The translations under genes and the position numbers were made by a program. Below are positions 26,390 to 44,208 of a DNA stretch of 64,000 nucleotides, in pieces. Source of the stretch: Parcubacteria group bacterium Athens0714_12. Its GTDB lineage: Bacteria > Patescibacteriota > Patescibacteriia > UBA2591 > VMGY01. Under the pieces are notes generated by a model, which did not search any database, had not been told where the DNA came from, and saw nothing but the letters and a program-made list of their open reading frames with translations. Each line of letters opens with the position of its first letter. Position 1 is the first letter of the stretch. The stretch spans positions 26,264-90,263 of the forward strand of contig VMGY01000003.1 of assembly GCA_007378955.1 (NCBI GenBank), in the 5' to 3' direction.

Positions 26390-27628
26390 TTATTTGAGTT
26401 GTATCTTATTCAACTGTCCGGTATTTTGGTCGGTAAAATAAAGAAAATCTTCTTCCGCGGAAAGAAATATATCCGAGACATTATATTCGCCAACGCTTGG
26501 TTCGGCTAAAAAAGTTTTTACTCCGCGATCAAGATTTATTTTATAAAAATTATCTCCGCGATCAGCTATTTCCGGCGCTAAGCCGGCGCCTTCCGGCAAA
26601 TATTTAGGCGCGGCGCAATAAATATTTTTATTATCAGAACTAAAAACGCATTTATCCGCCCAGGTCTGCAAATCTAATTCTTTTCTTCCCCGCCCGATAT
26701 TGTCGCCTTCGGCTTCAACCGCCCACAAAGTCGGACGATAACCGGAATCAGCATTCCAAACGCTGTAAATAATTTTATTTCCTTGAGGCGACCACTTGCC
26801 TTCAAAACCCCTGCCTTCCACGACAATTGATTTAAAATTCTCGCCATAAAAACCAATGAAAAGAATTTCCTGTTTGTCAAAACCCATATCCTCGCCGGTA
26901 GCGGAAAAAGCCACAACTTGATTATTGGGCGACCAAGCGACTTGGACTTTTTGAGCGTTTTCCCCCAAAGGCTCGATCATTTTCAAACCAGTGCCGTCAG
27001 CATTAGCTTTAGCCAGCCACCTGTTATTTGGGTCGTCACTGTCAATTTTTAAGCCGATTTCATTGCCTGAAGAAGAAAAAGAAAAATCGTACCAATTTTT
27101 ATTTAAAGTTATTTGCTTGTCTTTTTCAAAATCATACAAAATTTTATTTCCATCCGGATATTCCAAAATCGCCTTATTTTTATCCGGCGACCAATTAATA
27201 TTTTCCACCTGATAAAATTTTCTTTCTGAAAGCAATTCTCGCTTGCCGTCGGCATTGATTTTATAAAATTCGTTCTTGTCTTTATCGTAATAAAAAACTT
27301 CCCCGGTATTTTTATTCAAAATAGGCGATGAGACGACTTCTTTAATCACGGACTTGACTAATGTTTCTCCGCCGGCGGCAATATCAGAAGCAACGGGCAA
27401 AGACGGGGTGATTTCCGGCGATTCGCCTGACGGAGGAACAACGATTATTCCGCCAGTTCCTTCGCCTGCCGGAGGCAAAATTCCGGGCGAGACTATTTCT
27501 TTTCCTGCTTCCGGCAAAGGTTCCTTTGATATCGGCCGAAAAAATAAATAATATAATCCAAAGCCAAAACCGATGGCAATTAAAATAAAAATAATAATTA
27601 AAATGATTTTTTTAAAATCAAAACGCAT
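26390..27628 (-). CDS. membrane-anchored TolB-like beta-propeller protein
   Basis: N-terminal TM; repeated hydrophobic/Gly/Asp-rich blades resembling PD40/WD40-like repeats. Confidence 0.5.
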   Translation of the reverse strand: MRFDFKKIILIIIFILIAIGFGFGLYYLFFRPISKEPLPEAGKEIVSPGILPPAGEGTGGIIVVPPSGESPEITPSLPVASDIAAGGETLVKSVIKEVVSSPILNKNTGEVFYYDKDKNEFYKINADGKRELLSERKFYQVENINWSPDKNKAILEYPDGNKILYDFEKDKQITLNKNWYDFSFSSSGNEIGLKIDSDDPNNRWLAKANADGTGLKMIEPLGENAQKVQVAWSPNNQVVAFSATGEDMGFDKQEILFIGFYGENFKSIVVEGRGFEGKWSPQGNKIIYSVWNADSGYRPTLWAVEAEGDNIGRGRKELDLQTWADKCVFSSDNKNIYCAAPKYLPEGAGLAPEIADRGDNFYKINLDRGVKTFLAEPSVGEYNVSDIFLSAEEDFLYFTDQNTGQLNKIQLK

Positions 27629-27649
27629 AAATTATAACATTATAAAAAA

Positions 27650-28531
27650 TTAATATCCTAAATTTTCTTTGCACATATTATCAGTAGCGAGCGTCCATCC
27701 CACGCCGCAAATATCTCTGCATTCCCCTTTTAAAGGAAGTAAAGTATATTTATATTCAAGTTGAGGAACGCATTCATTGTCAATTAATTGACAACCGGGC
27801 TGAAGTTCGCAAGCATTTATTCCAAAAAACCCGCATCTCTCCAGTTTACTTGACCAAGAAACTAACGCATCGCTGCAGCAGACTATCTTTGAATCAACTG
27901 GCGGTATTTTATTTTCTATTTCATTTCTTGTTAAACCGCACATGCGCAAGACCTCGCATTTATTGCCTGTCCACCAGCAACCCCAATTATATTGCCCTAA
28001 ACATGCTTCTCTGCCTAAAAAACCGCATTCTTGCCCAGTTTTTTTCGACTGGACATATTCTTTTATATAAATACACTTATCATCAACCCATTGGCAACCT
28101 GGTTCAGGCTCGCATTTTTCTTTGCCAAGCAAACTGCATTTATCCTGAATAATGCCTATTTCGGGCAATTTTAATTTTACCAAATTTGGATTAATGATAT
28201 AAAGCAAACCATAAGAACAAAGCGCTAAAATCAAACCAACCACGGCATTGGAAATTGCTTTTCTCGCTTCGCCGATTTGCGAACCGCTGCCCGCGGCAGT
28301 CAGCCACTGCAGACCGCCCCACATAATCATCACCACTGCCACAACACTAATCGCTCCCAAGCCAAAAGTGTACCAAGCCGCGATGTAAGAAGCTAAATCC
28401 TTGCCCGCGCCTTCCTGCCCGGGAATAGGCACCTGCAAATCAATCGCCTTATCTTGCGCTTTAACTATCAGGCAAAAGCCAAAAACCAATAAGCTCGCTA
28501 AAATAATTTTTGAATATCTTTTATTAAACAT
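27650..28531 (-). CDS. secreted membrane protein with VirB2/TrbC-pilin-like N-terminal module and about 170-aa cysteine-rich C-terminal domain
   Basis: Signal peptide, two hydrophobic helices (WYTFGLGAISVVAVVMIMWGG..; VVGLILALCSYGLLYII), then about 26 Cys. Confidence 0.4.
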   Translation of the reverse strand: MFNKRYSKIILASLLVFGFCLIVKAQDKAIDLQVPIPGQEGAGKDLASYIAAWYTFGLGAISVVAVVMIMWGGLQWLTAAGSGSQIGEARKAISNAVVGLILALCSYGLLYIINPNLVKLKLPEIGIIQDKCSLLGKEKCEPEPGCQWVDDKCIYIKEYVQSKKTGQECGFLGREACLGQYNWGCWWTGNKCEVLRMCGLTRNEIENKIPPVDSKIVCCSDALVSWSSKLERCGFFGINACELQPGCQLIDNECVPQLEYKYTLLPLKGECRDICGVGWTLATDNMCKENLGY

Positions 28532-28532
28532 A

Positions 28533-28850
28533 TTAACGCAGTAAATCCCAAAATATTTTTAAAGGCGTCGCGCCAAAAAAATTTAAAAACCCCATTGGAT
28601 CATTTATAATCCAAGCCAATAAAATAATTATAAATAAAAGAATCAGCCAAAACCACCAAGTGACGGCGAAAAAGCCGACGAGAGAACTTAAAATCCAAAA
28701 CCAAATTTTTTTTGAAACAGCTTTTTTTATTTGGTTTGCGGCTTGTTTTTTAGCCGCCTCCCGCGCTTTTTCTTTTAAATCCTGTAATTTTGATTTTTTT
28801 AATTCTCGGCTTGCTTCCAATTCTTGTTCTTGCGTAATTTCATTATCCAT
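28533..28850 (-). CDS. small membrane protein (charged N-terminus, two TM)
   Basis: ORF abutting the pilin-like gene; no family recognised. Confidence 0.45.
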   Translation of the reverse strand: MDNEITQEQELEASRELKKSKLQDLKEKAREAAKKQAANQIKKAVSKKIWFWILSSLVGFFAVTWWFWLILLFIIILLAWIINDPMGFLNFFGATPLKIFWDLLR

Positions 28851-28907
28851 ACCAAAATTATTAAAAATTTAGAACGAAGTGAATAAATTTTTTATTATAA
28901 TTTTGAG

Positions 28908-29022
28908 TATCCCCCACCTATCCTAAAGTAGGGTTCTCAAAAAAGAATAATTAGAGCGGCGAAGCGACTCCGTCTCTGAAACTTACAAAAGAATTAATCA
29001 TACTCTGGGATAGGTGGGGGAT
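28908..29022. repeat. inverted repeat atcccccacctatcc ... ggataggtgggggat enclosing a GC-rich segment
   Basis: Perfect 15-bp arms about 80 bp apart. Confidence 0.4.
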
Positions 29023-29088
29023 TAACGATTTTGTAACTAAATTTTTTTCGGTTATTATTACAACCTCAAAAATTTTAGACAAAATCAG

Positions 29089-29646
29089 TTATTCCCATTT
29101 AATTTCATTTACTTTCCAATCTCCATTTTCTTTCAAAAAGGTTATTTTTGCTTCTTGATAATATATCTTGTTATCCGAAGGGCTGTCTGAACTTTCCTGC
29201 CTTTGGCAATTTACTTTAATGAGCGCTTGATTTGAATTAAAACTTTCTATTTCACTATTTAAAAATTTCGCGGAAAATTTTTCATAAGGCTGTTCAGCGC
29301 TTTGTTTTCGCAAGGCTTGTTTTATAAAATCATCAGCCCATTTTCGCATCGCCTGAGTCATAAACGGCTTCAAATCAATAATATTTTCGTAATTATTTTG
29401 ATTGGAATAATTGCCATAACTTTCGGCAAAGAAAGAAGCCAAGCTTTGCAATTCTAATTTAAGCTTTGTTTCTTCATCCGCGATTGGAATAATAACTTCT
29501 TCTGCTATTTTATTTTCCGCCTCTTGATTGATATTATTTGATTCTTTTTCCGCCGGCGCTAAATTATTTTTATAAATAAAAAAACCGCCAATTAAAAATA
29601 TAATTATTAGTAAAACGACAAATAAAATTTTTAGATTAGTGGGCAT
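29089..29646 (-). CDS. membrane-anchored hypothetical protein (185 aa)
   Basis: N-terminal TM; no family recognised. Confidence 0.45.
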   Translation of the reverse strand: MPTNLKILFVVLLIIIFLIGGFFIYKNNLAPAEKESNNINQEAENKIAEEVIIPIADEETKLKLELQSLASFFAESYGNYSNQNNYENIIDLKPFMTQAMRKWADDFIKQALRKQSAEQPYEKFSAKFLNSEIESFNSNQALIKVNCQRQESSDSPSDNKIYYQEAKITFLKENGDWKVNEIKWE

Positions 29647-29702
29647 AATTAATAAAATTTCTAATATCTAATATCTAAATAAAATGTCAAAATCCTAATG
29701 CC

Positions 29703-29822
29703 GAATAATATGAAGTGTCATTGCGAGCGACTGGAAGGAGCGAGGCAATCCCGAGGGGAAAGCAGTGAGCGGTGGGATTGCCGCGTCGTTCATTCCGCTT
29801 CTCTCCATTCACTCCTCGCAAT
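29703..29822. repeat. GC-rich long hairpin element, GTCATTGCGAG...GCAATCCC family
   Basis: gtcattgcgagcgac..gcaatccc / gggattgccgcg..ctcgcaatgacagcg inverted; about 60% GC in an about 30% GC context; same family as 43983-44208. Confidence 0.55.
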
Positions 29823-29883
29823 GACAGCGCGAAAGAATATCTTTTGTTATTTTGATTTTTAATAATTTATTGAAAATTGATAA

Positions 29884-31773
29884 TTATTTCTCCCGCTCCA
29901 TCTCTTCCTCAAACTCCTTTTTGGCGGCTTCTATTTCCAAAAGCTGGCGCGGGTCTGAAGTGATAAGCTGGTCTTCCGCGTAAGAAGCGACTACTTTAAT
30001 CGCCGCGTGTTTGGCGCCGGCGAAAAAAATTCCTTCTCCCACTCCGCTTTCCAAAAGCAAATATTTCTCTCCTTCGGTGAGCATAAAAGTTTTAGACACC
30101 AAATCTATCGCCGCCGGCGATTGCTTAAAAAGCAATTGCAAGGCGGAATTATTGACAATCGCGTGGCCATAATCTGAACTCAAAAAATCCTGAACATCTT
30201 GAGTAATCACCGTGATGCCTAAATAATACTTGCGGCATCTTTTAACCAAGGCGTAAATAAATTTGGCTGAATCTTCGTTTTGCATCAGCCACCAAGCTTC
30301 ATCAACAACCAGCATTCTTTTCTTCATTTCCGTTCTGACGATATTCCAAATATAATTGATTATAGTATAAATAGCGATCGGCCTCAATTCGTCCTCCAAA
30401 TCACGGACGGAAAAAACAACTAATTGATTTTTGGTTTCAATATTAGTCGGCTGATTCAATAAACCGGAAAAAGTTCCTTCGGTGTATTTTTTCAAACGCT
30501 CGGCTAAACTTTCCCCGCCTTCCATTCCCTGCAAAACTTCCAATAGGTCGCTCATAATCGGCGCTTCTATCTGTTGGGAAAGATTTGAGGAGGGGGTAAT
30601 GTCTTTTTTGGCGTAAGTTTCCAATAAAGCTCTATCCAATAACGAATCTTCTTCTGGAGTAAAATGCAAAACGCCTTTTTCGTCCGGCACGCCAATCATT
30701 AATTTTAATAATCCTTTTAAGGTGATAACAGCTGTTCTGATAATATCTTCTGTTTTAAAATCTTTGGAAAGCGGCTTGGGCAAATCAAAAGGATTGATTT
30801 TGCTTTCCGAGGCCAAAGAAATATTTATATAACTTCCGCCCACCGCGTCGCAAAGGTGCTTATATTCTCTTTCCGGGTCAATGATAATCATCTCAACGCC
30901 AAACATCATACTCCTTAAAACTTCTAATTTTACGAAATAACTTTTTCCCGCGCCCGACACGGCGAAGACAGTCATATTCGCGTTCTCCAAAGAAAAACGG
31001 TCAAATAAAATCAAACTATTATTATGGCGGTTAACGCCGTAAAGAATGCCGTTATCGCTGGTGACGTCAGCTGAAACAAATGGAAATGAAGAGGCGCAAG
31101 GCGAAGTGTTCATATTAAAAGCAATCATCAGCTCGTCATTAGCCAAGGGCAAAGTGGAATTAAATCCTTGCTCTGACTGATAAAAACTTCTTCGCGAATA
31201 TATTAATTTTGAGCCCAGCAAAGATTCCACTTTTTCAGAAAGCAAATCCAATTCTTTTTGAGAATCAGCGTAAATAGTGATATATAAACTGAATTGAAAA
31301 AATTGTTCAATGCCCTGGGTCAAATCATCTCTTAATTTTTCCATATCCCTTAAAGCGGTTTCTTTTATCGGGTCTCGGGGAGCGCCTTTCTCCACCCCCG
31401 CGGAAATTTCCGCCTCTAATATTCCCACTCTATTTCTTAATTGCTTTAAAATAATTTCTGATTTAACTTTATAAAAATACATCGCGATATCCAAAGGGGC
31501 GGTTAAATTAATGATTGGCGTAAACCAGCCCACATTAATATAGCGGGGATAATTAATGACAAAAAGAGTGCGGATGAATTTATTATTCAATTCCAAATTA
31601 TAAGGATTGATACGCATGGAAGCGGGAGCAATTAAATCACGGACAGAAAATATTCCGGCGCGATAAGCCTCTTCGGACCTTATTAATTCTTTTTCCTCTT
31701 CAATAGTAAGTTTAATTTTTTCTTTATTATCCTTTTCCTTTTCTTCTATTTTTATTTTATTCGCTTTGAACAT
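29884..31773 (-). CDS. VirB4/TrbE-family type IV secretion ATPase (ATPase domain)
   Basis: Walker A VSGAGKSYFVK, Walker B VVDEAWWLM, VirB4-like length and C-terminal organisation. Confidence 0.75.
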   Translation of the reverse strand: MFKANKIKIEEKEKDNKEKIKLTIEEEKELIRSEEAYRAGIFSVRDLIAPASMRINPYNLELNNKFIRTLFVINYPRYINVGWFTPIINLTAPLDIAMYFYKVKSEIILKQLRNRVGILEAEISAGVEKGAPRDPIKETALRDMEKLRDDLTQGIEQFFQFSLYITIYADSQKELDLLSEKVESLLGSKLIYSRRSFYQSEQGFNSTLPLANDELMIAFNMNTSPCASSFPFVSADVTSDNGILYGVNRHNNSLILFDRFSLENANMTVFAVSGAGKSYFVKLEVLRSMMFGVEMIIIDPEREYKHLCDAVGGSYINISLASESKINPFDLPKPLSKDFKTEDIIRTAVITLKGLLKLMIGVPDEKGVLHFTPEEDSLLDRALLETYAKKDITPSSNLSQQIEAPIMSDLLEVLQGMEGGESLAERLKKYTEGTFSGLLNQPTNIETKNQLVVFSVRDLEDELRPIAIYTIINYIWNIVRTEMKKRMLVVDEAWWLMQNEDSAKFIYALVKRCRKYYLGITVITQDVQDFLSSDYGHAIVNNSALQLLFKQSPAAIDLVSKTFMLTEGEKYLLLESGVGEGIFFAGAKHAAIKVVASYAEDQLITSDPRQLLEIEAAKKEFEEEMEREK

Positions 31774-31786
31774 AAAATAATTTAAT

Positions 31787-32464
31787 TTATTGGTCTATCC
31801 TTAATTTTTCTAAACTTTCTAATTTTTCCTGCTCGGCAATTTCCGGATTATAAGTTTTATAAAATAATTCTATCAAACTTTGCGTATCCAAGGGAACTGA
31901 TTTCAATCCCATACTCGCCAATCCGCTCATAATCGTATCCGCTCTTTTGAATAATTCCAATTTATATTTTTCAAATAAAGTCCTTTTTAATTTTATGATC
32001 ATCACCGCGGAAAGAGTTTCTTGCAATCTGATAAAAAAATTCTTTGCTCCACCGGAAAATGGCGAATAAGAGACAGCCACATAAAAATATTTGCTCATAA
32101 TCTCGCCCATCTCCACTAATTCCTGAATATAGCTGATATATTCCGCGGTCTGCATTTTCAACAAATCATTTTCCTGATTTTCTTCAACTTCTTTTAATTT
32201 CTCTATGTAAGAAGAAATATTCAGTTTCCTTGATTGAACAATGATTTGCACTGAAAATTCCAAACTATTTAAAAAATTAACATATCCTTGAATAATCGCT
32301 TTTTGCTCTTCTTCGCTTTTTAAAGCAAAGTTAATTGAAGAAACTAATAGGATTGTTCTTAAACTGCCGTCTTTTAAAACCACGCAATCGTCTTTTATTT
32401 CCGCGATATCCAAATATTTTTGCGTGGAAGGCAAACTCTTTTTTTTAATTATATTTTCTGGCAT
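31787..32464 (-). CDS. putative VirB4 N-terminal domain encoded as a separate ORF
   Basis: LDIAEIKDDCVVLKDGSLRTILLVSS..SEEEQ resembles the VirB4 N-terminal start; ends 13 nt before the ATPase ORF start. Confidence 0.45.
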   Translation of the reverse strand: MPENIIKKKSLPSTQKYLDIAEIKDDCVVLKDGSLRTILLVSSINFALKSEEEQKAIIQGYVNFLNSLEFSVQIIVQSRKLNISSYIEKLKEVEENQENDLLKMQTAEYISYIQELVEMGEIMSKYFYVAVSYSPFSGGAKNFFIRLQETLSAVMIIKLKRTLFEKYKLELFKRADTIMSGLASMGLKSVPLDTQSLIELFYKTYNPEIAEQEKLESLEKLRIDQ

Positions 32465-32486
32465 AAATATTTTATTAAATTTTTAA

Positions 32487-32912
32487 TTACTCTTCCCGGT
32501 ACGCTCCGCCGGTGTCAACAATCAATGATAATTCCGAAAGCTTGGAGCTAATTAATTTTTTTCTGATTAATTCCGCTGGAATATCTTCTTTTATTGATAA
32601 TTTTATTTCTTCCTTCTCTTTTTCTTTTATTGTTTCTTTCCCCCAGATTCGCAAGGCTGGCTTTCTAAAAACCGATTGGATAAAATTCAAAAGAAAATAA
32701 TGGAACATTTGCCCGCCCGGCTTAAACCAGCCGAATAAATAAACAAAAAAGATAACCATCAGGCCTTCGGTGACAAATAAAGAAAAATCAGCCAGCTTAT
32801 AACTAATAACCAAAATTATTCCGCCCGCTAACATAATAATAAATTGCCGGGCGGTAATGGGCCCGATAATTTTTGGCTCGATTTCAATAAATTGCGGGAC
32901 TAAAAACTGCAT
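32487..32912 (-). CDS. VirB3-like small membrane protein
   Basis: 141 aa, two TM helices, immediately upstream of the VirB4-like genes. Confidence 0.45.
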   Translation of the reverse strand: MQFLVPQFIEIEPKIIGPITARQFIIMLAGGIILVISYKLADFSLFVTEGLMVIFFVYLFGWFKPGGQMFHYFLLNFIQSVFRKPALRIWGKETIKEKEKEEIKLSIKEDIPAELIRKKLISSKLSELSLIVDTGGAYREE

Positions 32913-32915
32913 AAT

Positions 32916-34265
32916 TTAAAATCTTAAAGATTTGTTTAAATCCACTAGGGCGATGATTTCTTCCTCGGTTAAAGCAATTTTTCCCTGCTCAATCCTTTCT
33001 TTTATTACTTCTTTGGTTTCTTTGTTTTTTTCTATGCTTTCTCTGCCTATTTCTAAATATATTCTATAAACCTCGCTTTGCCGCCAATTCCTGATGCCCT
33101 GAATCTTCTTGGAAAATGATTCCTTTTCTAAAAGGTCAATCTTTTGCTTAATTTTCAAAGCGGCTCCTTGCGCCTCATCAGCCAATTCCCTAAAATCTTT
33201 CAATTTAAAATATCTTAATTCCTCCAAAGGCCCTATTACTTTCGGGGGCGGCGCTTTTATATCTTCCATCAATGTTTTATTTGTTTCTATTTTCGGCTTC
33301 CATTCTGTGTTAATAATTTTTTCCTGTTGTTTATCAATTTCTTTTTTCCCAATTTTTGGCTCGGTTATTATTTTAGGAATCTTTGGTTCTATCAAAACCG
33401 GCGCAACTGATTTGGCGGGTTCAGCAATTTCAACGGGCTTATTTTCCTTTAAGTCAGAAAAGGAAATTTTTTCCTCATTTTTAATTTCCGGTTTCAAGGC
33501 GGGCAAGTTAGAATTTTCTATCGCTTCAGCGGCTTCGTAAATTTTAACTTCTAAATCTTTCGTAATAGGAAATTTTATGGGTTTAACCGGCTTAGAAATC
33601 TCAAATTTGGGCAAGGGCGCGTCTTTTTTAAATTTCTCGCCGAATTTTTTAAATTCTTCTTTAAAAATCTTTGCTGTTCTTTCCGCTTCGCTCTCGCTTA
33701 ATTCCAAGCCGCCGATTTTTTTGGATTTCATTAAAATTTCTTTGGTCTCTATCTCGTCCCTGATGTCCCTTAAGTGAAGGGCAATAATGCTTTTTAGCCG
33801 CTTGCTCAAAATTTCGTCGGCAAAAGGCAAATTGACTTTTCCCGCGATTTCCTCCGCCAATTTTTCTACGCTTAAAGGCTTGATTTTTCCCGCCTTTTCT
33901 CTTATTTTTTCTAATTCCTCGTCCTCCAAAGCTCCAGCAGGAACGAAGGAGGATTTTTTTTCTTCCGAAGGAATATCGGAAAAAGAAAATTTTTCCAAAT
34001 CATCCATAATAGGATTGAAAACCTTTTTTAAAACCTCTTTGATATTTTCTATATCCTCTTTCTTTTCAAGATGATAATATTCTCTTAAAAAATTTTCCGA
34101 CTCTTTTATCTTTATAGTTTTAGTGGCGATAAAAATAACCATTCTTAATAAATCAATATTATATTTTTTTTCAGCTTTTTCCAAAAATTCTAAAACTTCC
34201 GGCTTTTCAATCCTCTCTTTTATTTTCTTTGGCGCTCTTTGAAATTTTTCTAAAATTTCTATCAT
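32916..34265 (-). CDS. soluble Lys/Glu-rich hypothetical protein (449 aa) in the T4SS-like cluster
   Basis: No TM; low complexity; no family recognised. Confidence 0.45.
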   Translation of the reverse strand: MIEILEKFQRAPKKIKERIEKPEVLEFLEKAEKKYNIDLLRMVIFIATKTIKIKESENFLREYYHLEKKEDIENIKEVLKKVFNPIMDDLEKFSFSDIPSEEKKSSFVPAGALEDEELEKIREKAGKIKPLSVEKLAEEIAGKVNLPFADEILSKRLKSIIALHLRDIRDEIETKEILMKSKKIGGLELSESEAERTAKIFKEEFKKFGEKFKKDAPLPKFEISKPVKPIKFPITKDLEVKIYEAAEAIENSNLPALKPEIKNEEKISFSDLKENKPVEIAEPAKSVAPVLIEPKIPKIITEPKIGKKEIDKQQEKIINTEWKPKIETNKTLMEDIKAPPPKVIGPLEELRYFKLKDFRELADEAQGAALKIKQKIDLLEKESFSKKIQGIRNWRQSEVYRIYLEIGRESIEKNKETKEVIKERIEQGKIALTEEEIIALVDLNKSLRF

Positions 34266-34273
34266 AATTTTAT

Positions 34274-36367: not shown

Positions 36368-36441
36368 ATGAAGTTATGAAATTCCAAATCTCAAATCACA
36401 AATTTCAAACAAATTCAAAATCCCAAATTCTAAATTCCAAA
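36368..36441. repeat. AT-rich inverted-repeat arm (aaattccaaatctcaaatcacaaatttcaaacaaattcaaaatcccaaatt), partner at 36805-36856
   Basis: Reverse complement of 36805-36850 agaatttgtgatttgtttggaatttggtgcttgaaatttggaattt. Confidence 0.55.
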
Positions 36442-36804
36442 CTACTTACTATTAGTCAAAATAGAATTAAAAATTTTAATAAATTCTGAGGCTTCTTGAA
36501 TTAAAAATTTACCTTCGTTGTTGCTACTTAAATTATTAGTATCAATAATTAATCTAAGCCAATAGCGACTTTCTTTTGATTCTTTCCTGGAAATTTTTAT
36601 TCTCATCATAAAGTCTTTTTTACTTAATGATTCATTCGCTTCAATATAGTTTGCCCCAACTGAACCACTGGCTCGAACTACTTGTCTAATTAACTCAATG
36701 TTTTCTACTGTTCTTACTAATTTTTTGCAAAATTCTATTACTCGTTTAGTAAAATTAAAAGTTCTTTCTTCTAAATCGTAATTTTGGTTTTGTATTTTGG
36801 TCAT
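36442..36804 (-). CDS. four-helix-bundle protein ('23S rRNA intervening-sequence protein' family)
   Basis: VRASGSVGANYIEANESLSKKDF..RISRKESKESRYWLRL matches the family signature (GANY.EA....S.KDF...S..E..E..YWL). Confidence 0.75.
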   Translation of the reverse strand: MTKIQNQNYDLEERTFNFTKRVIEFCKKLVRTVENIELIRQVVRASGSVGANYIEANESLSKKDFMMRIKISRKESKESRYWLRLIIDTNNLSSNNEGKFLIQEASEFIKIFNSILTNSK

Positions 36805-36856
36805 TAGAATTTGTGATTTGTTTGGAATTTGGTGCTTGAAATTTGGAATTTAATCT
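36805..36856. repeat. AT-rich inverted-repeat arm, partner of 36368-36441
   Basis: See 36368-36441. Confidence 0.55.
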
Positions 36857-39800
36857 TTACGGTATCACCACTATCCGCCCGTCAAACATTTGACCGCCGC
36901 AACCGGCTTGATAGCCGCCGTTATTGCACCAACCCCAATTATCTTGAATCTGAATTGCCGGCCTAAAAACGCAACAGCCGCCATTAGTAATCCCTAAAAC
37001 AGGGCAAACAGCCTGCCAGCCGGCTCCGCCAATCTCGCACCTATAACTATGATAATAATTGAAATAACCTTCTAAACAAGCTTCTGGGGTATGCCCAAAA
37101 TCCCGGCTGTCGCATTCTCCTATTGCCAAATGATTTTTATAAAATCCCGGGAAAGGCCCACTCGCGCTTCCGTCGCCCCAATTAATAATTATATTTCTAA
37201 TGGGCATTTGGTCTTTGTCTACCAAGCTGAAAAATTTAAGACTTGTCCTTATTCTGCCCCTCGCCAAAATATCCCCGCTGTTCTGATTATTGATCGTCAT
37301 TCTATAATTCGCGTCTTGATAGCATTTTCCGCTTGACGGGTCGCAATCCAAAACGCCAACGCTTCTTATTTTTAAAGCCGATATTTGAGGCGCTCTGGAA
37401 GCATTGCTGGCGGTAAAAGTCACATCCCAAACATCGCTATTATTTACAGGCACGTATCCATTGCCAATATTATATTGATAAATTTGGTAAGACCGGGCAA
37501 AAATATCATGTAAACTTGATTTATTATTTTGATAATCATTATCCCCGATATAAAACATTTCCTGCTGAGAGCATTTTGGAAAATTCTCGTGGTCAATAAA
37601 AATAGTTTCTCTGTCCACCGCCCGATTAGGCAAAGCGGCAAAAAGAGGAGAGCAAGTACTGCTATAATTATAGCCAAGAGAATTAGTAAAATTACTTGTC
37701 TGCCAAACCCTGTCAGTCCAAGCTTTATTTTCCGCCCCTTGGGTAACTCCCGCTATTTCAGCGCATCTTTCGCCAGTACTTAAAATATTGCAATCTCCTT
37801 GGCTTAAATTAGGAATTATGGTTAAAGTGGCGGAAATATAACAGCCATTGCCGCCAATAACTTCGCAATCCCATTCGCATCTGTCATGCAAGCCTCTCCG
37901 ATATGTGCGGGTATTTCTCTCCACAAAGCCAAAGGGACAGCCATCGCATTCCCCCGAATCTTCATGATAACTTGCTCTCCAATCATAATTAAGTTCTTCT
38001 TTCTCCAAGCAATAAAACGGACCCTCGCCCAAACCTAATCCTCCGGCATTAAACCCGGCTTCCACATATTGATTATATAAATCAGAAGCGCCGACAATCA
38101 AATCAATAGGCATCCAGGTCAAACAGGCGAATTGGTCGCTTTTGCCATTGATGGTTTTACTCTTGTCTCTTTCCAAGCAATAGCCCTCCCAGCCGATATA
38201 ATTAACTTTTTTCTTAACTGGCGCGCAATGGCCATCTCCATCTCGGCAATCTTGAACTGTCACTTCTTGCCCGCAGAATTTTCCGTCTTCTTCTCCCCCC
38301 TGGCAAATAGAATCAGGAATAGTTAAATTATTTCCGGCAAAATATTTTTCTTCGCCACTGCCGTAAGACACTTTTTGATAATGACAATCGCAAGCCTCTA
38401 CTTCGCCATCGCCCGCGTCTTGGCAATAATTCGCGTTGGCAAATTCCGTGATTACTCTGGTGTTATTAGAAAAAGGGCTTTCTTTTTGAGGATACCCGCG
38501 GCAGGAAGAAGATAGCGCGCCGCCATTAGGCAAATTTCCATCTATGCCCGCCACGCACCGCTGGCTGTAGCAAAGCCCGTTTCTCCCTCCGATGTTGCAA
38601 GCCGAACCATTGGCGCTTCCCGACGGGCAATCGCCCAAAATATAAACTAATTTATTTTCCGGATTATCCAAACTGCCAAAATTAATTGAACTTAATAAAT
38701 GAATTTGATATTTATCAAACAAGGAATATCCTGAAAAATCCAAAGCTTCCCATTGACCTGTGTTCAAAGAAGCATAAACATCTTGAGTCAGAGGCTGAAG
38801 CAAATTAGGGTCATTTACTTCATTACTGCAACTAAATCCCCGCCCAAAACCTAATGACTGGTCGCAAAGAATCAAACCGCCGTCTTCGCAAACTTCTTTA
38901 TACTTGCCGATGCGGGAATCAAAAACCATATGCGTATTTTCGCAAGTAAGCCATTGCCCGCATTCTCTGTCTCTGAGCACTTTTAAAAGATTATCTTCGC
39001 CTTCTCTCGCTTGGCCATTGAAATTAATTCCCATTTTTTCTAATTTAACGCAACTATCTTTCCAATCTTCCTTAGAACAAAAAGAGAGTTTGTTATTATC
39101 CATGTAATAATAAGTTTCTCCTGTTAAATTTTCCGTATTTTCCTGATATGGCCTGAATTGCGTGCAGCCGCTGTATTTTGAAGGGCATAAGCCGGCCCAG
39201 CCAATATCAGGGTATCTATCTTCATCAATGTCACAATTTAAATTATTTACTTTAGTGAACCAGCCGGAAGTAATGACTCCGTTCAGATTAATATTTTCTT
39301 TAAACTCGCAAACTCTTTCGCCCGGGTCTTTAAAATAAGCCGTTGCTCCATTTGCTTCATATGCTTCGCATTTATCCTCGCTATTTTGGCAAAGTATCGG
39401 ACTGATTATTTTTTCCGGAGTAGAAATATATTGGTCGGGATTATTTTTTAAATAAACTGTTTGCCAAATTTGCCCATTGCTTGAATCTAATTTTAAATTC
39501 CCATTTGCGTCCAAACTCGGAAGGCCGAATACCCTGCAACCTTTATCATCGCTATGGCAATAATTCTTGGAATTAACCACGACATAAACCAAAGCATCGC
39601 TTTGTACGGTGACATCATCTATATTATCTCCTCCCTGATTAAAGCTTTCTTCATAAGGAGAAGATGAATTTCGGGTGTCTATTAAAAGTTCACAGCCTGC
39701 TTTGTCTTCTTCGCAAAGGCGGGAAAATGATTTTAAATAATATCTATTTCCTTTTTTATCTTTATATTCCTCGCAATTAATTTGCGCTTTTGTGATTGGC

Positions 39801-42800
39801 TGGTCGCAGACTGCTGGCGTATCCGCGGAATTTTTTATCAAATAAAGGCTGTCGAAAATTTCTTTCAAAATAATATTATCTAAGTAAAAAACTCCTTGTC
39901 CGTTAATCACGATGCTTTCTCCGCCATTTTCTTCCGCGTCAAAAGAAATCGGGCCTACGGTGTATGAATTCCATTCGTTAGAAATTAAGTTTACTCTGCC
40001 GAATTCCAAACTTAAATCAGGCCTTCGCAATTCGCTCAAAAGCTGGCCTTCTCCTTTTGCCCAAAAACTCAAAACATAACTTCTGCCTGGCAACGGCGAA
40101 ATTGATTTTGAAACCGCGCCGTTTACCCTTAAAGAATGCCCGCTGATATTTACCGATTCATTGCTGTTAACTCCTCCTTGCCAGCTCTGATTAGTTAAAT
40201 CTTCAAAATCATTTTTAAATAAAACGCGATAATTATTGGCGGACGCGCCTTTATATTCTCTGCAGCCCGCGCTCTGCCGGGAACATTTAACGCCTTGGCT
40301 GGGAATAGCCATATAAATACAATTATTATTCTGCCAAGTCCCGCCAGTCGCGTCGCAATCCTGCAAATTAGAATCTGTTTTTCTCAAAGGATGGCAATCA
40401 TCAGAACAGGTGATAGTTTTAGAATAAGAACGATAAAAAATTTCTCCATTGGTATTATAAAATTCCCGGCAATCAGGGTTGGTTAAAATTTTCTGACTGC
40501 AACTATTTGGGTCGTCAGAAACTAAATTAGGGTCGCAGCAACTGCCGGAATTATCAACAGTGGCAGGGACGCCCCCAGCCACTGACTCTAAATTATAAAC
40601 TTCCAATTGATATCCGGTTTGTTCGGAGCCGACCCAAGTATAAAAATTAGCGCAACTTAAATTCGGCTTCTGACATTGCCTTAAATACGTATAATATTCT
40701 TTGCCTTCGCCGCCTTGAGCCACCACATCCAAATTCGTAAATTCTTCGCAACCCGCATTCTGCGCTGAACATTTCTTCGCGTTTTTAGCGATTAAAGCCG
40801 TAAGGTCATTTCCTGTATCAAAAAAAGTGGGTGATTGCTTATAATAACGATAACCGACGCATTCCGCGGGGCATTTATTATAATCCATAATTACGCCCGG
40901 AATATCCGGCTCTCCCTGCCTTGAAACCGGAGTATAAAGCCGGCAGCCTAAATCATTCGCGTTGCAATAAGTCCGATTGCCATTAAGATAAATTTTTTCC
41001 ACCTCGGCATAATTTTCATATATATCATTTTCATCCGCATCAGCTTGCACAATATTAAAAACATCCGCCAAACTTCTATTTTCCGTAATCTTGCTTAAAT
41101 ATAAAAATTCTTCACAGCCTGATTCTTTCTCGTCGCATTTTTTAGCATTTTTATTTAAATAAATCCTGTCATTAACGTTCCATTGTTCATTAAGCATAGA
41201 CTGGCTGTACCATTTGCATCCGGCATTGTCGGCATCACAGCCATTTCTTTCCAAAGTATTGGTTAAATAGGAAAAAACCTTTCCGTCTTCCCGCCTGTAA
41301 GTTGAACAAGTGTCAAAATAAAAAGGGCATTCATCACCGCCTAAACGCCAAACATTTTTTTCTCTTAAGCAATATCCCCAGCCGCCCCGGCAATTACCAT
41401 TTTTGTCTTCACTGATGCAACTGGGCGTGTCCACGCAGACATCCTGCCTCCTATTGCTTTCATTGGATTCTAAAAATGTTCCTGAAACAAGGGACTTGCA
41501 TTGCGTAAGCGGCGCTTTTAAAAGCCACTCGGGGTCAATAAGATGAAAATATTTAGAATCAGGATTATCAAAATTATCCATCATTTGCTTTAAAGTCGCT
41601 TCTCCTTTGGAAATAGAGGCTGCTATTTCCCACCCTAAAGGTAAAATTCTAACTTTTCTTAATTTGACCAAATTACTATGGCAATAAGCGTATGTATAAC
41701 AATAAGCGTCTTGATTTTTAGCAATCTCTTCAGGAGAAATCAAAAGCCAATCGCCCTTGATGTATCCTTGCTCTATCGCTTCTCTGACGGTTAATTTTTC
41801 TCTTATCGCGTGAGCGAAATTTTCATCAATCGCGCAATTATCAATTGAGGCAAAACGAGTATCCTCCGGGCAAGAAACAAATTTGCTTAAAGGATTGTAT
41901 TCGCCGCCGGAACGGATATCAGGCACCGCCAAAGAAGAAAAGACATTTCGGGCTTTAGTGATGCCGCCCGCGCTTAAACCGCTTCCGAATCTGTTATAAT
42001 CTTCATCATCGCCTAAATCCATTAAACTCCAAAATCCTTTTTTCATTCTGTCCGTCAAGCGCGCCGTTAAAGTATTGGTAAAAATTGAAATTGTGTCCGC
42101 CCAAATTTCTCCGGTAAATGTTTTTTCCGGGGCATCCGCGCCTTTGATAGAATTTTTAACTTGTTCTTGGCTAAGGTCGGCCGGAGTTTCTATTTGTTCG
42201 GAAATAGGAGAGGTCACGTCTTTAACCCAATTACCAGCTCTCTTTAATTCAGCGTTAGTTTGAGCTTTTTGTTGGACGCTTAACATTTGACTGGATAAAG
42301 TTAAATAAGTTCCTATGTCATTTTGAGTTGGTTCAAAGCTAACCGCGAATCTTCTTAAAAAATTAGGGTCTTTCAAGGCTTTCTGCCAATTATTTCTCAT
42401 TTCTTTCCAGGTGCATTTTACTTCTCTCGGTTTTATTTCTTCACCCAATCCCAATTGAATTTTTAATTTAGCGGAAATATCTGAAGGTTCGCAGATGTTT
42501 ATATTCCATTGGCTGACGCAAACATCAGATATTTGCTTGTAAAGCCCTTCATCCGTTTTAGGGCAAGGACTTATTTCCGCTCCATTTATATCACTCAACC
42601 ATCTGCAATCAGCGGGGTCATTTGGATTATTGCACTGGCAATGAGTGCCAATAGGAGAACAAAAATTATTTTTGCCGCATCGCGCGGTTGAATTTCCCTT
42701 GCAATAGCCCGAACCGCTACTGACTAAAGTTTCCAGAAAATCTCCCGCCGCCGCGTCAGCCGCGTCTTCCAAATAAGTCTTCCAATTCTTAGTAAATAAA

Positions 42801-43147
42801 AGCGGTTTTTGGCCTTTATCTCCGCTGCCAATCCAGACCGCCGTGTCATAAGCGATTTTAGTGGTAAAAGTTTTTAAAGCGTTTTTAAAAGCAATCGCCG
42901 CCACCTTGTTATAAAGAAACTCCCCTGCTTTTTCTATTCTTTCCCATACCCATTTTGACATATTCATAACTGTTTGAATTGGATCTGTAACTACCCATTG
43001 AGCATTTGCTGGCTTTGGATAAAACAAAACAGGAATAATAACTTGCAAAATAAAAAATATCAAAACCACGCTGGCGATAACTTTTGTCTTGCCAGAATGT
43101 TTTGATGATTTGTTTTTGGGATTAAATTTCTGTTCCCGCCAAACCAT
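36857..43147 (-). CDS. giant (2096 aa) secreted cysteine-rich protein with a concanavalin/LamG-like lectin domain; putative surface adhesin of the T4SS-like locus
   Basis: N-terminal signal-anchor; more than 150 Cys in CxxC/CxC/CC-rich modules; central jelly-roll-like segment (about aa 975-1100) ending in YLDNIILKE. Confidence 0.65.
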   Translation of the reverse strand: MVWREQKFNPKNKSSKHSGKTKVIASVVLIFFILQVIIPVLFYPKPANAQWVVTDPIQTVMNMSKWVWERIEKAGEFLYNKVAAIAFKNALKTFTTKIAYDTAVWIGSGDKGQKPLLFTKNWKTYLEDAADAAAGDFLETLVSSGSGYCKGNSTARCGKNNFCSPIGTHCQCNNPNDPADCRWLSDINGAEISPCPKTDEGLYKQISDVCVSQWNINICEPSDISAKLKIQLGLGEEIKPREVKCTWKEMRNNWQKALKDPNFLRRFAVSFEPTQNDIGTYLTLSSQMLSVQQKAQTNAELKRAGNWVKDVTSPISEQIETPADLSQEQVKNSIKGADAPEKTFTGEIWADTISIFTNTLTARLTDRMKKGFWSLMDLGDDEDYNRFGSGLSAGGITKARNVFSSLAVPDIRSGGEYNPLSKFVSCPEDTRFASIDNCAIDENFAHAIREKLTVREAIEQGYIKGDWLLISPEEIAKNQDAYCYTYAYCHSNLVKLRKVRILPLGWEIAASISKGEATLKQMMDNFDNPDSKYFHLIDPEWLLKAPLTQCKSLVSGTFLESNESNRRQDVCVDTPSCISEDKNGNCRGGWGYCLREKNVWRLGGDECPFYFDTCSTYRREDGKVFSYLTNTLERNGCDADNAGCKWYSQSMLNEQWNVNDRIYLNKNAKKCDEKESGCEEFLYLSKITENRSLADVFNIVQADADENDIYENYAEVEKIYLNGNRTYCNANDLGCRLYTPVSRQGEPDIPGVIMDYNKCPAECVGYRYYKQSPTFFDTGNDLTALIAKNAKKCSAQNAGCEEFTNLDVVAQGGEGKEYYTYLRQCQKPNLSCANFYTWVGSEQTGYQLEVYNLESVAGGVPATVDNSGSCCDPNLVSDDPNSCSQKILTNPDCREFYNTNGEIFYRSYSKTITCSDDCHPLRKTDSNLQDCDATGGTWQNNNCIYMAIPSQGVKCSRQSAGCREYKGASANNYRVLFKNDFEDLTNQSWQGGVNSNESVNISGHSLRVNGAVSKSISPLPGRSYVLSFWAKGEGQLLSELRRPDLSLEFGRVNLISNEWNSYTVGPISFDAEENGGESIVINGQGVFYLDNIILKEIFDSLYLIKNSADTPAVCDQPITKAQINCEEYKDKKGNRYYLKSFSRLCEEDKAGCELLIDTRNSSSPYEESFNQGGDNIDDVTVQSDALVYVVVNSKNYCHSDDKGCRVFGLPSLDANGNLKLDSSNGQIWQTVYLKNNPDQYISTPEKIISPILCQNSEDKCEAYEANGATAYFKDPGERVCEFKENINLNGVITSGWFTKVNNLNCDIDEDRYPDIGWAGLCPSKYSGCTQFRPYQENTENLTGETYYYMDNNKLSFCSKEDWKDSCVKLEKMGINFNGQAREGEDNLLKVLRDRECGQWLTCENTHMVFDSRIGKYKEVCEDGGLILCDQSLGFGRGFSCSNEVNDPNLLQPLTQDVYASLNTGQWEALDFSGYSLFDKYQIHLLSSINFGSLDNPENKLVYILGDCPSGSANGSACNIGGRNGLCYSQRCVAGIDGNLPNGGALSSSCRGYPQKESPFSNNTRVITEFANANYCQDAGDGEVEACDCHYQKVSYGSGEEKYFAGNNLTIPDSICQGGEEDGKFCGQEVTVQDCRDGDGHCAPVKKKVNYIGWEGYCLERDKSKTINGKSDQFACLTWMPIDLIVGASDLYNQYVEAGFNAGGLGLGEGPFYCLEKEELNYDWRASYHEDSGECDGCPFGFVERNTRTYRRGLHDRCEWDCEVIGGNGCYISATLTIIPNLSQGDCNILSTGERCAEIAGVTQGAENKAWTDRVWQTSNFTNSLGYNYSSTCSPLFAALPNRAVDRETIFIDHENFPKCSQQEMFYIGDNDYQNNKSSLHDIFARSYQIYQYNIGNGYVPVNNSDVWDVTFTASNASRAPQISALKIRSVGVLDCDPSSGKCYQDANYRMTINNQNSGDILARGRIRTSLKFFSLVDKDQMPIRNIIINWGDGSASGPFPGFYKNHLAIGECDSRDFGHTPEACLEGYFNYYHSYRCEIGGAGWQAVCPVLGITNGGCCVFRPAIQIQDNWGWCNNGGYQAGCGGQMFDGRIVVIP

Positions 43148-43220
43148 AAAATTTATTTTAATTCATTAGACCTGTTGCGCAATAATTTTTTCTGCTGCAA
43201 CTTAAAATTTTGACTGAAAA

Positions 43221-43937
43221 TTATTCGGGCTTCGCGTTTTGCCGGTTCAACGCCTCTAAAAATAAAGTTCTTAAAGTCTTGTCATCAATTTGGTCCAAAA
43301 TTTCTTTTTCCGCGCCGCCTTCCATTAAAATGTTTCTGATGTCTTGAGCGGATAAATTTTCCAAGAGCGCTTGATTATTTTTTAAAACATCGGGGTTGAG
43401 ATTTTTTTCCAATGACAAATTTTCTGGGTTAATGCCCGTTTCTTTTATAGTTTCATTATACACTTCTTTTAAAGTCTTGTCATCAATTTTATCCAGAGTT
43501 TCTTTGTCCATTCCCGACTTGATTAAAAAATCTTTTATTTCTTCGGCGGATAATTCTGTTTCATCGCTTGACGAATCTTGTGAAGAAGATTCTACTGAAA
43601 CGGTTCCGCAAATTTCTCCTTCCGGACAAGAAGGATTTGTTCCCTTCTCTATTTCTTCTTTATCAAAAATTCCGTCGCCATCCGTATCTTCCAAATAAGG
43701 CGATGTCTTATAAACATTGAGCTCGTTAAAATCATTTAAGCCGTCTTTATCAGTATCTATATTATTTAAATCCAATAATTCCGAAACTTTTTGTTGTTCG
43801 CCTTGGTCATTGGCCGCTGAATTAAACGGCCTATAAATATTTGACTTGAATTGAAAAAAGGCGATAAAAAAAATCAGAATAGTTAAAAAACTTAAGCCCA
43901 ATAAAGATAATTTTTGCCGCTTGTTAAGAGATTTCAT
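43221..43937 (-). CDS. secreted calcium-binding protein with thrombospondin-type-3/dockerin-like DxDxDG loops and an internal duplicated domain
   Basis: Signal peptide; DTDKDGLNDFNE and DTDGDGIFDKEE loops; duplicated ETLDKIDDKTLKEVY / EILDQIDDKTLRTLF. Confidence 0.6.
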   Translation of the reverse strand: MKSLNKRQKLSLLGLSFLTILIFFIAFFQFKSNIYRPFNSAANDQGEQQKVSELLDLNNIDTDKDGLNDFNELNVYKTSPYLEDTDGDGIFDKEEIEKGTNPSCPEGEICGTVSVESSSQDSSSDETELSAEEIKDFLIKSGMDKETLDKIDDKTLKEVYNETIKETGINPENLSLEKNLNPDVLKNNQALLENLSAQDIRNILMEGGAEKEILDQIDDKTLRTLFLEALNRQNAKPE

Positions 43938-43982
43938 TAATTATAATTATAGCAAATAAATTAGAAAAGATAAATAAAAAAG

Positions 43983-44208
43983 ATGTCATTGTGAGGAACC
44001 TCGAGATTGCTTCGCCTGCTGGCTCGCAATGACAGGGCGGAAGAGTGTCATTGCGAGGAGCGACTGAAGGGAGCGACGAAGCAATCCCGTGTCCACTTGT
44101 CATTGCGAGGAGCGACCCCAAGGAGCGACGCGGCAATCCCGTTGTCTATCGCGTCCCCACTCTGTCATTGCGAGGAGGCAGCAGCCGACGCGGCAATCCC
44201 GTGAGTAT
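43983..44208. repeat. four tandem copies of the GC-rich GTCATTGCGAGGAGCGAC...GCAATCCCG element
   Basis: Units start at about 43986, 44047, 44099 and 44165; first unit is itself a hairpin (tgtcattgtgagg..ctcgcaatgaca). Confidence 0.6.

Follow-up and report, generated by a model that had tools for sequence, protein, structure and literature searches.

The stretch of DNA analysed here, a window of 64,000 nt (positions 26,264 to 90,263 of contig VMGY01000003.1, assembly GCA_007378955.1, Parcubacteria group bacterium Athens0714_12), contains at 26390-43937 an island of genes that is very probably a type IV secretion system (T4SS) of the Patescibacteria clade, chromosomal, inherited vertically and derived from the MPF_FATA type, with the layout of the class ABY1 and a presumed role in host contact, not conjugation. 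The relaxase-less Patescibacteria T4SS and its context are already published and the headline is known; the residual novelty is an ABY1-specific accessory module and the assignment of a VirB8-like component. A TSP3-like gene, a gene encoding a Cys-rich protein of 2,000-3,600 aa and the gene for VirB6 make up a conserved triad that is new.

Gene content and chromosomal context

The island comprises twelve minus-strand open reading frames (ORFs), all in the same direction and at the coordinates given in the original prediction, a description made from the sequence alone. They encode proteins of 412, 293, 105, 185, 629, 225, 141, 449, 697, 120, 2096 and 238 aa (TM, transmembrane), as follows:

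26390..27628, minus strand: PD40-type beta-propeller, membrane-anchored, 412 aa (TM 8-26, five WSPDG-like repeats)
27650..28531, minus strand: VirB2-like T4SS pilin, 293 aa, with a 170-aa Cys-rich C-terminal extension (PF18895)
28533..28850, minus strand: small membrane protein, 105 aa, with a charged N-terminus and two TM segments (TM prediction)
29089..29646, minus strand: predicted VirB8-like bitopic protein, 185 aa, with an N-terminal TM helix and an NTF2-like domain (AlphaFold, Foldseek, hhalign)
29884..31773, minus strand: VirB4 ATPase, 629 aa, CD1110/MPF_FATA type (NF045971, P-loop_TraG, Walker motifs)
31787..32464, minus strand: TrsD-like protein, 225 aa, related to the VirB4 N-terminal domain (NF041427, VirB4_plasma N-region, PF26593)
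32487..32912, minus strand: PrgI/VirB3-like small membrane protein, 141 aa, two TM segments (PF12666)
32916..34265, minus strand: p449, conserved soluble protein, 449 aa (synteny)
34274..36367, minus strand: putative VirB6-like polytopic membrane protein, 697 aa, 'extended VirB6' (TrbL_3/TrbL homologues, hhalign, topology)
36376..36854, minus strand: inserted cassette with a 23S-rRNA-IVP family four-helix-bundle gene (36442-36804, 120 aa; PF05635, inverted repeats)
36857..43147, minus strand: giant Cys-rich secreted/surface protein, 2096 aa (signal peptide, Cys modules, family search)
43221..43937, minus strand: TSP3-like protein, 238 aa (PF18884, Ca-binding motifs)

The prediction of a T4SS-type machine with a pilin, VirB3, VirB4 and VirB6 is borne out by matches above cut-off to PF18895, PF12666 and NF045971 and, for VirB6, by its homologues; of the profile searches that had been proposed as a check, those for the VirB2-like pilin, VirB3/PrgI and VirB4 thus succeeded, and the VirB6-like query had no Pfam match. 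Intergenic gaps are only 3-74 nt from the TSP3-like gene through virB4 and are followed by two spacers of ~237 nt that contain strong hairpins, and for this reason there are probably three transcription units, divided by the hairpin-bearing spacers.

The island is bracketed by radA and ksgA, with housekeeping genes on both sides (radA, rpsO and pnp downstream; ksgA, a major facilitator superfamily (MFS) transporter gene and leuS upstream). The recG gene is at 51569, and dnaA, at 61915, is 18 kb from the island. The GC content of the island, 0.35-0.41 in a composition scan, is like that of its surroundings, and no break in GC along the window marks it as foreign, which rules out a foreign island. 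The VirB6-like protein and the giant both match, at 100% identity, proteins encoded on contig VMGP01000002.1 of Parcubacteria group bacterium Athens1014_10 (GCA_007376655.1), an assembly listed as class ABY1 and VirB4-positive in the supplementary table of a survey of 3,035 Patescibacteria genomes (Quinonero-Coronel et al. 2025; PMC12102498). In that survey, most Patescibacteria VirB4s grouped in a single clade inside MPF_FATA, the most abundant accessory T4SS component was TrsD, a protein in its own right that is akin to the N-terminus of VirB4, PrgI/VirB3, VirB6 and VirB2-like pilins were encoded near virB4, relaxases were nearly absent from the clade and inter-class transfer of the T4SS was rare (PMC12102498). 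The locus was reported close to ksgA and dnaA, with radA, recG and comF as neighbours in ABY1 (PMC12102498). All of these features (TrsD, PrgI, VirB6, VirB2-like pilins, ksgA, dnaA, radA, recG and comF) are present in the window.

The island therefore shares with the Patescibacteria-clade T4SS (PMC12102498, PMC10633639) an MPF_FATA-derived VirB4, a separate TrsD, PrgI/VirB3, VirB6 and a VirB2-like pilin, as well as a chromosomal location near ksgA, dnaA, radA and recG with no relaxase or type IV coupling protein (T4CP) nearby. It differs in having a protein that is VirB8-like by predicted structure, the TSP3-like and giant pair beside VirB6, and a Cys-tailed pilin; the survey detected no adhesin in Patescibacteria and few VirB8 homologues (PMC12102498). 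Southlakia epibionticum cannot grow as an epibiont without its T4SS genes and pilin array (Wang et al. 2023; PMC10633639), and that T4SS has no recognisable coupling or relaxase proteins (PMC10633639); the essential role is repeated in a 2025 review, and comEC is dispensable for viability (PMC10633639, PMC12857230). The Saccharimonadia T4SS has a pilin array, whereas the window has a single pilin gene.

Translocon core

The 629-aa VirB4 scores 326.1 bits against NF045971 (VirB4, CD1110 family; cut-off 325, E 4.4e-97) and matches P-loop_TraG (E 1.2e-29), and its translation has intact Walker A (SGAGKS) and Walker B (VVDEAWW) motifs. Its assignment to a clade is by similarity ranking, with 65-74% identity to VirB4s of ABY1-type relatives versus 35% or less to those encoded on plasmids of Bacillota and Actinomycetota. 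At one relative's locus (L070, 16049-19888), VirB4 is matched by tblastn over ~3.8 kb, and the VirB4 ORFs of the relatives reach up to 1,310 aa, which suggests that the L070 VirB4 carries an insertion, either an intein or an extra domain.

The adjacent 225-aa ORF matches NF041427 (TrsD; E 1.5e-8), the N-region of VirB4_plasma (E 2.6e-9) and, in precomputed annotation, PF26593 (TraC-like). The original prediction had taken this ORF and virB4 for one gene apparently in two pieces. A frameshift is ruled out, as the 225- and 629-aa ORFs are the same in the independent NCBI and Logan assemblies and the TrsD-like ORF is separate from virB4 in all 48 relatives in which the pair was compared; it is also separate in a Pontibacillus (Firmicute) megaplasmid. 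The two ORFs are a native TrsD-VirB4 pair. Upstream, the 141-aa protein has two TM segments (19-37 and 43-61) and matches PrgI (PF12666) with 37.5 bits (cut-off 27, E 3.4e-9). Between this and the VirB6-like gene is p449, with no TM segment and no Cys; a Pro/Lys-rich linker connects its conserved N- and C-terminal domains, and it had no match in Pfam, NCBIfam or PDB-profile searches.

The 697-aa protein has ~8 TM segments within residues 1-330, followed by a hydrophilic C-terminal extension, and belongs to a large Patescibacteria family (261 matches). P0018, a homologue that matches the query at E 6e-62, is assigned to Pfam TrbL_3, a second homologue (P0098) matches TrbL at 3.4e-5, and two of 32 family members reach TrbL in current Pfam. 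In hhalign comparisons, the family aligned with R388 TrwI (E 0.004), pCF10 PrgH (0.02) and a 779-aa Pontibacillus protein (2e-4), in all three cases over the same conserved 'LSP...WW' region. A PDB profile search with this protein returned only low-complexity coiled coils, and tblastn against plasmids returned nothing. Given the transitive homology, topology and position, we accept the protein as putatively VirB6-like.

The structure prediction that had been proposed as a check was run for the 185-aa ORF, encoded 3' to virB4. AlphaFold2, with a 98-sequence alignment, modelled a TM helix and an NTF2-like domain with a mean confidence (pLDDT) of 92.2, and the top Foldseek matches in the PDB were CagV/VirB8 (8.6e-6), TcpC (3ub1), PrgL (7aed), the R388 stalk/arches chain 8rtd_Y (TrwG) and Agrobacterium tumefaciens VirB8 (2cc3); the list also includes generic NTF2 folds. 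An hhalign comparison with PrgL gave E 0.006 over the NTF2 region. A PDB profile search gave no match, the VirB8 relation being found by fold comparison only. A word-index search returned three proteins, and an exhaustive representative search, used instead, revealed a family of 1,693 representatives of 50% clusters. By its modelled fold, bitopic topology and position, the protein is newly assigned as VirB8-like.

The nearest candidate for a peptidoglycan hydrolase is a LysM-LysM-CHAP protein encoded at 18205-19473 on the plus strand, the strand opposite to the island and ~7 kb from it, and a LysM-M23 gene is present near the locus in a distant relative (L086). The LysM-CHAP protein is a candidate for the VirB1-like function of the T4SS.

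Conservation of gene order

One genome per species was scanned with an alignment of VirB6, which yielded 80 loci in Falkowbacteria, Uhrbacteria and other ABY1-type metagenome-assembled genomes, and gene order was established by tblastn with all island proteins. Fifty-six loci had sufficient downstream sequence to be informative, and 58 had at least 8 kb upstream. As the proposed synteny check required, gene order is conserved among these loci, with the recurring order ksgA - TSP3-like - giant - VirB6 - p449 - PrgI - TrsD - VirB4 - VirB8-like - (pilin - propeller) - radA. Of the downstream genes, the 56 informative loci contain:

p449 homologue, between VirB6 and PrgI: 48/56 loci
PrgI homologue: 49/56 loci
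TrsD homologue: 47/56 loci
VirB4 homologue: 46/56 loci
VirB8-like homologue, directly 3' of virB4: 44/56 loci
radA: 28/56 loci

A giant homologue is encoded upstream of VirB6, on the same strand, at 45 of the 58 loci, and a TSP3-like gene is directly upstream of the giant gene at 20, by our own count nearly every locus at which this position is visible. The giant protein and its Ca-binding partner thus do belong to the conserved gene neighbourhood, in line with the original prediction. The pairing extends to Kerfeldbacteria-type loci (L085 and L086), reached from distant giant homologues. In several genomes, L086 included, the TSP3-like, giant and VirB6 genes are together and no PrgI-TrsD-VirB4 block was detected in the downstream flank covered, and because the triad persists there, linkage to VirB6 seems closer for the giant than for VirB4.

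A layout described as not textbook proved to be class-typical for ABY1, published, and a mirror of the order adhesin(s) - VirB6 - VirB3 - VirB4 - VirB8 of pCF10. In the Prg/Pcf system of this Enterococcus faecalis plasmid, the MPF_FATA prototype, the adhesins PrgA, PrgB and PrgC are encoded immediately upstream of PrgH (VirB6), PrgI (VirB3), PrgJ (VirB4) ... PrgL (VirB8), and an adhesin at this operon position is thus the Gram-positive norm. The two systems also share a lack of VirB11 and a monoderm envelope. They differ in that the PcfC coupling protein, PcfG relaxase, PrgK hydrolase and LPXTG adhesins of pCF10 all lack a counterpart in the window, whereas the pilin, absent from pCF10, is present in the window together with TrsD, p449 and a giant, non-LPXTG, Cys-rich protein.

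The locus designated L084, on a Pontibacillus plasmid typed as non-mobilizable (NZ_CP062975.1, 4474-14027), has the series pilin-like (Mbov_0395 family) - hypothetical - 779-aa polytopic - 116 aa - TrsD-like (274 aa) - VirB4 - M23 peptidase. Pilin-bearing, TrsD-containing MPF_FATA loci therefore exist also outside Patescibacteria.

Giant Cys-rich protein and its TSP3-like partner

The 2096-aa protein begins with a signal peptide that has a conserved A-x-A site (PANA|QW), followed by a helical N-domain, a conserved compact domain (~420-550), repeated C-x(4-8)-GC modules, a CBM_4_9-like beta-sandwich (~975-1110) and a variable C-terminus. It contains 96 Cys (4.6%) and nine copies of C-x(4-8)-G-C-x(1-3)-[FYWL]. 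The C-x(4-8)-GC motif is also present three times in the pilin tail and is absent from 16 other proteins checked. The CBM_4_9 match of this protein is weak (E 0.009, about residues 975-1035), and homologues carry CBM_4_9, dockerin, VWA, PA14 or fn3 domains. The family has 108 members of ~1,300-3,660 aa, mostly 2,000-3,660 aa (many of the shorter ones are partial), and all named sources are Patescibacteria. The giant protein is not mentioned in the Patescibacteria T4SS literature that we searched.

Its 238-aa partner reaches 25.6 bits against TSP3_bac (PF18884; cut-off 25). It has an N-terminal membrane anchor (TM 10-28), two DxDxDGxxDxxE Ca-binding repeats, at residues 61 and 84, and an internal direct repeat of 85 nt/28 aa.

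The genes of VirB5 type are classically located just upstream of virB6, as in R388. The giant gene is likewise directly upstream of virB6, and its product shares with the VirB5, TrbJ and TraI (CTnDOT, DUF4141) minor pilins a Sec signal peptide and a helical N-terminal region, and differs from them in being ~10 times larger. In conjugative transposons of Bacteroides, DUF4141 proteins are encoded next to traJ, a VirB6-like gene (PMC10434189), and TraI of CTnDOT has been reported to be homologous to VirB5 (PMC4027160); from its adjacency to traJ, DUF4141 is presumably TraI. DUF4141 matches are present at the N-termini of the giant, of P0140 and of four of 13 family members, at 18-23 bits, below the cut-off of 30, and partly over the signal peptide. 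An hhalign comparison of the giant N-terminus with TrwJ gave E 0.15, and an AlphaFold2 model of residues 1-560, with a pLDDT of 55 overall and ~90 for residues 420-550, had no fold match, its N-terminal part being of low confidence. A VirB5/DUF4141 minor pilin was thus not confirmed for the N-terminus, with no model match above threshold.

It is conceivable, if rather unlikely, that the ABY1 T4SS has gained an adhesive module in which the N-terminus of the giant would be a VirB5-like adaptor that docks on VirB6 or the pilus tip, partnered by the membrane-anchored TSP3-like protein and by VirB2 pilins whose tails consist of the giant's own Cys motif. In that case the giant would supply the adhesin 'missing' from the Patescibacteria T4SS and would be the first example of a giant adhesin joined to a T4SS tip or stalk protein.

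Pilin, small membrane protein and propeller

The 293-aa pilin matches T4SS_pilin (PF18895) at residues 51-112 with 28.6 bits (cut-off 26.6) and has a signal peptide, two TM segments and 20 Cys (6.8%), 18 of them beyond residue 125. Cys-rich extended pilins are also encoded at five other loci (L006, L034, L047, L081 and L088), and the pilins of the closest relatives have variable Cys-rich tails, being 258-524 aa long with 11-33 Cys. The stop codon of the 105-aa protein gene is 1 nt from the start codon of the pilin gene; this protein has TM segments at 49-67 and 69-87, a very weak match to CD1108 (E 0.016) and no tblastn match in the relatives.

The 412-aa protein had been described as TolB-like. 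Five WSPDG-type PD40 repeats are visible in its sequence, PD40 model matches are also far below cut-off and the score against TIGR02800 (TolB) is 16.2 bits versus a cut-off of 343, which rules out a TolB orthologue and leaves a PD40-type propeller with a membrane anchor. The propeller gene is 3' of the pilin gene at L034 and L081 only.

Relaxase, coupling protein and VirB11

As had been noted from the sequence, there is no relaxase, VirD4-type coupling protein or VirB11 among the scanned window ORFs of at least 100 aa (seven ORFs of this size lay outside the scan, and four of these, 56635-56949, 57239-57601, 60128-60814 and 60934-61353, were covered by precomputed Pfam matches). None was called in the ~12 kb beyond the window ends, ~76 kb in all, and this region also has no integrase. 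With no DNA-processing genes in this DNA, and housekeeping flanks, a conjugative role is unlikely, as was originally proposed. Of the parts expected in a conjugative MPF_FATA system, the VirB8-like protein is present, a relaxase, coupling protein and mobile-element hallmarks are absent from the ~76 kb, and a VirB1-like hydrolase is absent from the 12 ORFs.

Two of these absences say little. The lack of VirB11, initially read as a signal, is probably the norm for Gram-positive-type T4SSs and, as the ATPases annotated in the Gram-positive prototype, pCF10, are VirB4- and VirD4-like only, with no VirB11, it carries no information. In 2,918 Patescibacteria genomes, 5,713 T4CP homologues were recorded, 148 of them near virB4 (PMC12102498), and because these homologues are usually far from virB4, the missing coupling protein in the island is of little weight. 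Relaxases numbered 109, in 103 Patescibacteria genomes (PMC12102498).

Host contact and alternative explanations

From the translocon parts, the pilin, the conserved place on the chromosome and the lack of nearby genes for DNA processing, we infer that VirB4 and TrsD, docked on PrgI, VirB6 and VirB8, would pull pilin from the membrane to form a short pilus or wall-spanning conduit. The giant protein, exported by Sec and equipped with a carbohydrate-binding module, would bind host surface polysaccharide at or beside the machine, the TSP3-like partner would add Ca-dependence to a disulfide-stabilised binding to host glycans, and the Cys-rich pilin tails would decorate the filament. The giant, TSP3-like and Cys-tailed pilin proteins presumably function in host contact, and the whole would be a disulfide-stabilised host-contact organelle for epibiotic attachment and for the exchange of protein, another macromolecule or nutrient, not for conjugation.

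Several points weigh against this reading. The essentiality data come from another class, Saccharimonadia, with function in ABY1 extrapolated from them, and the available entries of the supplementary table list no such giant gene at the Saccharimonadia locus. The giant carries a signal peptide of its own and might be no more than an adjacent adhesin that synteny has retained, and 13 of the 58 loci have no giant homologue within 10 kb upstream of VirB6. As noted, the VirB6-like query itself lacks a Pfam match. No hydrolase domain was found by family scans in any of the 12 island ORFs, so there is no VirB1-like protein. A relaxase or coupling protein could also be encoded elsewhere in the 814-kb genome, the search having covered ~76 kb.

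The alternative that survives best, although we consider it doubtful, is that the giant, TSP3-like and PD40 propeller proteins are ordinary surface proteins, kept beside the T4SS by conserved near-origin gene order in small genomes, and not parts of the machine. A Sec signal peptide and adhesin-type modules need no T4SS, leuS or other genes intervene in several loci, and 13 lack the giant within 10 kb of VirB6, the propeller accompanies the locus in only two relatives, and ksgA, the MFS gene and leuS, all plainly unrelated, are equally syntenic with it. The TSP3-giant-VirB6 triad is, however, kept in the distant L085 and L086 and where a VirB3/VirB4 block is not seen in the covered flank, the genes have the same direction with gaps of 52-74 nt, the Cys motif of the giant recurs in the pilin tail and in none of the 16 other proteins, and Gram-positive T4SS operons put adhesins in the same position.

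It is quite unlikely that the island is instead a DNA-uptake machine, a T4SS run in reverse like archaeal Ced/Ted, that imports host DNA for recombination or as a source of nucleotides with the participation of radA, recG, comM and comEC. As described for Ced/Ted (PMC9905601), a pilin, VirB6 and VirB4 with no T4CP or relaxase fit the Ced logic, the likeness being a VirB2-like pilin, a VirB6-like protein, a VirB4-family ATPase and a chromosomal location. The radA gene abuts the locus in the window and in 28 of the 56 informative relatives, recG, comM-like and comEC genes are all inside the 64-kb window, the same radA/recG/com association has been noted for ABY1 (PMC12102498), and Patescibacteria are reported in the literature to lack de novo nucleotide synthesis. 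The ATPase is nevertheless not a CedB orthologue, with 52.5 bits against the CedB model NF041017 (cut-off 700) versus 326 bits for the CD1110 conjugation family, and the window adds PrgI, TrsD, a VirB8-like protein and a giant, adhesin-like surface protein with no counterpart in Ced. Natural transformation of S. epibionticum needs comEC, deletion of which abolished competence, and is attributed to type IV pili, and the radA/ksgA adjacency may be plain conserved near-origin synteny.

That the island is a functional or recently decayed integrative conjugative element, with its relaxase and coupling protein elsewhere, is highly improbable: the VirB4, PrgI, TrsD and VirB8 set does stem from conjugation machinery, T4CP homologues are common far from virB4 and the 109 known relaxases show that such genes occur in Patescibacteria (PMC12102498), but ~76 kb of sequence contains neither an integrase nor a relaxase or T4CP, housekeeping genes flank the locus, which has the same chromosomal position across many species, the GC content is like that of the surroundings, VirB4 identity tracks taxonomy and inter-class transfer is rare (PMC12102498).

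If the giant, TSP3-like, Cys-tailed pilin and VirB8-like proteins belong to the apparatus, they offer specific candidates for the recognition and holding of hosts by uncultured ABY1 cells, and would be targets for cryo-electron tomography, prediction of complex structures and inference of host range. An adhesin was missing, and VirB8 nearly so, from the machines in the published survey; the VirB8-like family of 1,693 representatives and the TSP3/giant pair address both.

Inserted cassette and hairpin repeats

The four-helix-bundle protein had been counted as an element of the island. It matches 23S_rRNA_IVP (PF05635) with 61.5 bits (cut-off 33.8, E 1e-16), and its gene lies between imperfect inverted repeats of 66 nt (36376-36441 and 36789-36854, 73% complementary). 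Homologues are present in only two of the 80 relatives (L032 and L054), at other positions within the T4SS cluster, and the IVP gene is therefore an inserted passenger cassette, not a T4SS component; this distribution suggests a small mobile cassette that lands repeatedly in these operons. A diversity-generating retroelement, with the IVP gene in the part of an Avd-like gene, was considered; it is argued against by the lack of a reverse transcriptase among the ORFs scanned and of a long direct repeat (template and variable repeat pair) joining the 3' end of the giant gene to the IVP surroundings. An AT-rich inverted repeat at 26108-26245, within the 332 nt that separate the propeller gene from radA, has arms of 31-34 nt that are 84% complementary, and its TAATTTCTAAT motifs resemble those in the arms around the IVP cassette.

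Three hairpin-bearing sites are located in spacers of the island or at its edge:

28900..29020, minus strand: separate single long-stem hairpin, in the 238-nt spacer 3' of the VirB8-like gene
29705..29840, minus strand: GC-rich hairpin, an inverted pair of the repeat unit, in the 237-nt spacer from virB4 to the VirB8-like gene
43975..44210, minus strand: five-copy array (three direct copies and an inverted pair) of the same GC-rich repeat, in the 271-nt spacer from ksgA to the TSP3-like gene

The original prediction had grouped GC-rich hairpin repeats at 28908, 29703 and 43983. The second and third do form one GC-rich repeat family (29717-29825 and 43985-44200; CTCGCAATGAC / GGGATTGCYKCG), with seven matches to each sequence versus 0.4-0.7 expected and nearly all matches in the window within the two spacers. 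The first does not belong to that family and consists of one long stem (-43 kcal/mol, z -5.3); the hairpin at 29705..29840 has -49.5 kcal/mol and z -3.5. The GC-rich repeat is absent from the loci of all 80 relatives and so is specific to this genome. None of the hairpins corresponds to an Rfam family, and with no T-tract after them, intrinsic terminators are ruled out.

Other features of the window

Beyond the island, the window contains a split comEC, rRNA genes with LAGLIDADG introns, murD, the LysM-CHAP hydrolase gene, a comM-like gene, recG, smc and dnaA. Relative to contig VMGP01000002.1, it has 65 extra nt in ksgA (44811-44875), giving an intact 270-aa gene in place of fragments of 50 and 191 aa, a radA that is 39 nt shorter (25468-25508; 446 versus 459 aa) and four mismatches across the island. 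All of these differences are probably assembly variants. The comEC gene (718-2934) consists of two adjacent ORFs 3 nt apart, the first with Competence/DUF4131 domains (455 aa) and the second with a metallo-beta-lactamase domain (281 aa), and is also split in the NCBI record.

The 23S rRNA gene (4210-8365) is 4,156 nt long versus 2,925 nt for the model and has a LAGLIDADG ORF inside (5063-5545); a second LAGLIDADG ORF (3656-4144) lies between the 23S and 5S genes, and the 16S gene (54125-55666) is unlinked, ~46 kb from the 23S gene. The Rfam tRNA-Sec model matches 49974-50058 with 53 bits (gathering score 47), overlapping the 3' end of a LAGLIDADG_3 ORF (48969-50009) and directly followed by another tRNA; this match may be a long-arm tRNA (Ser/Leu) instead of a true tRNA-Sec.

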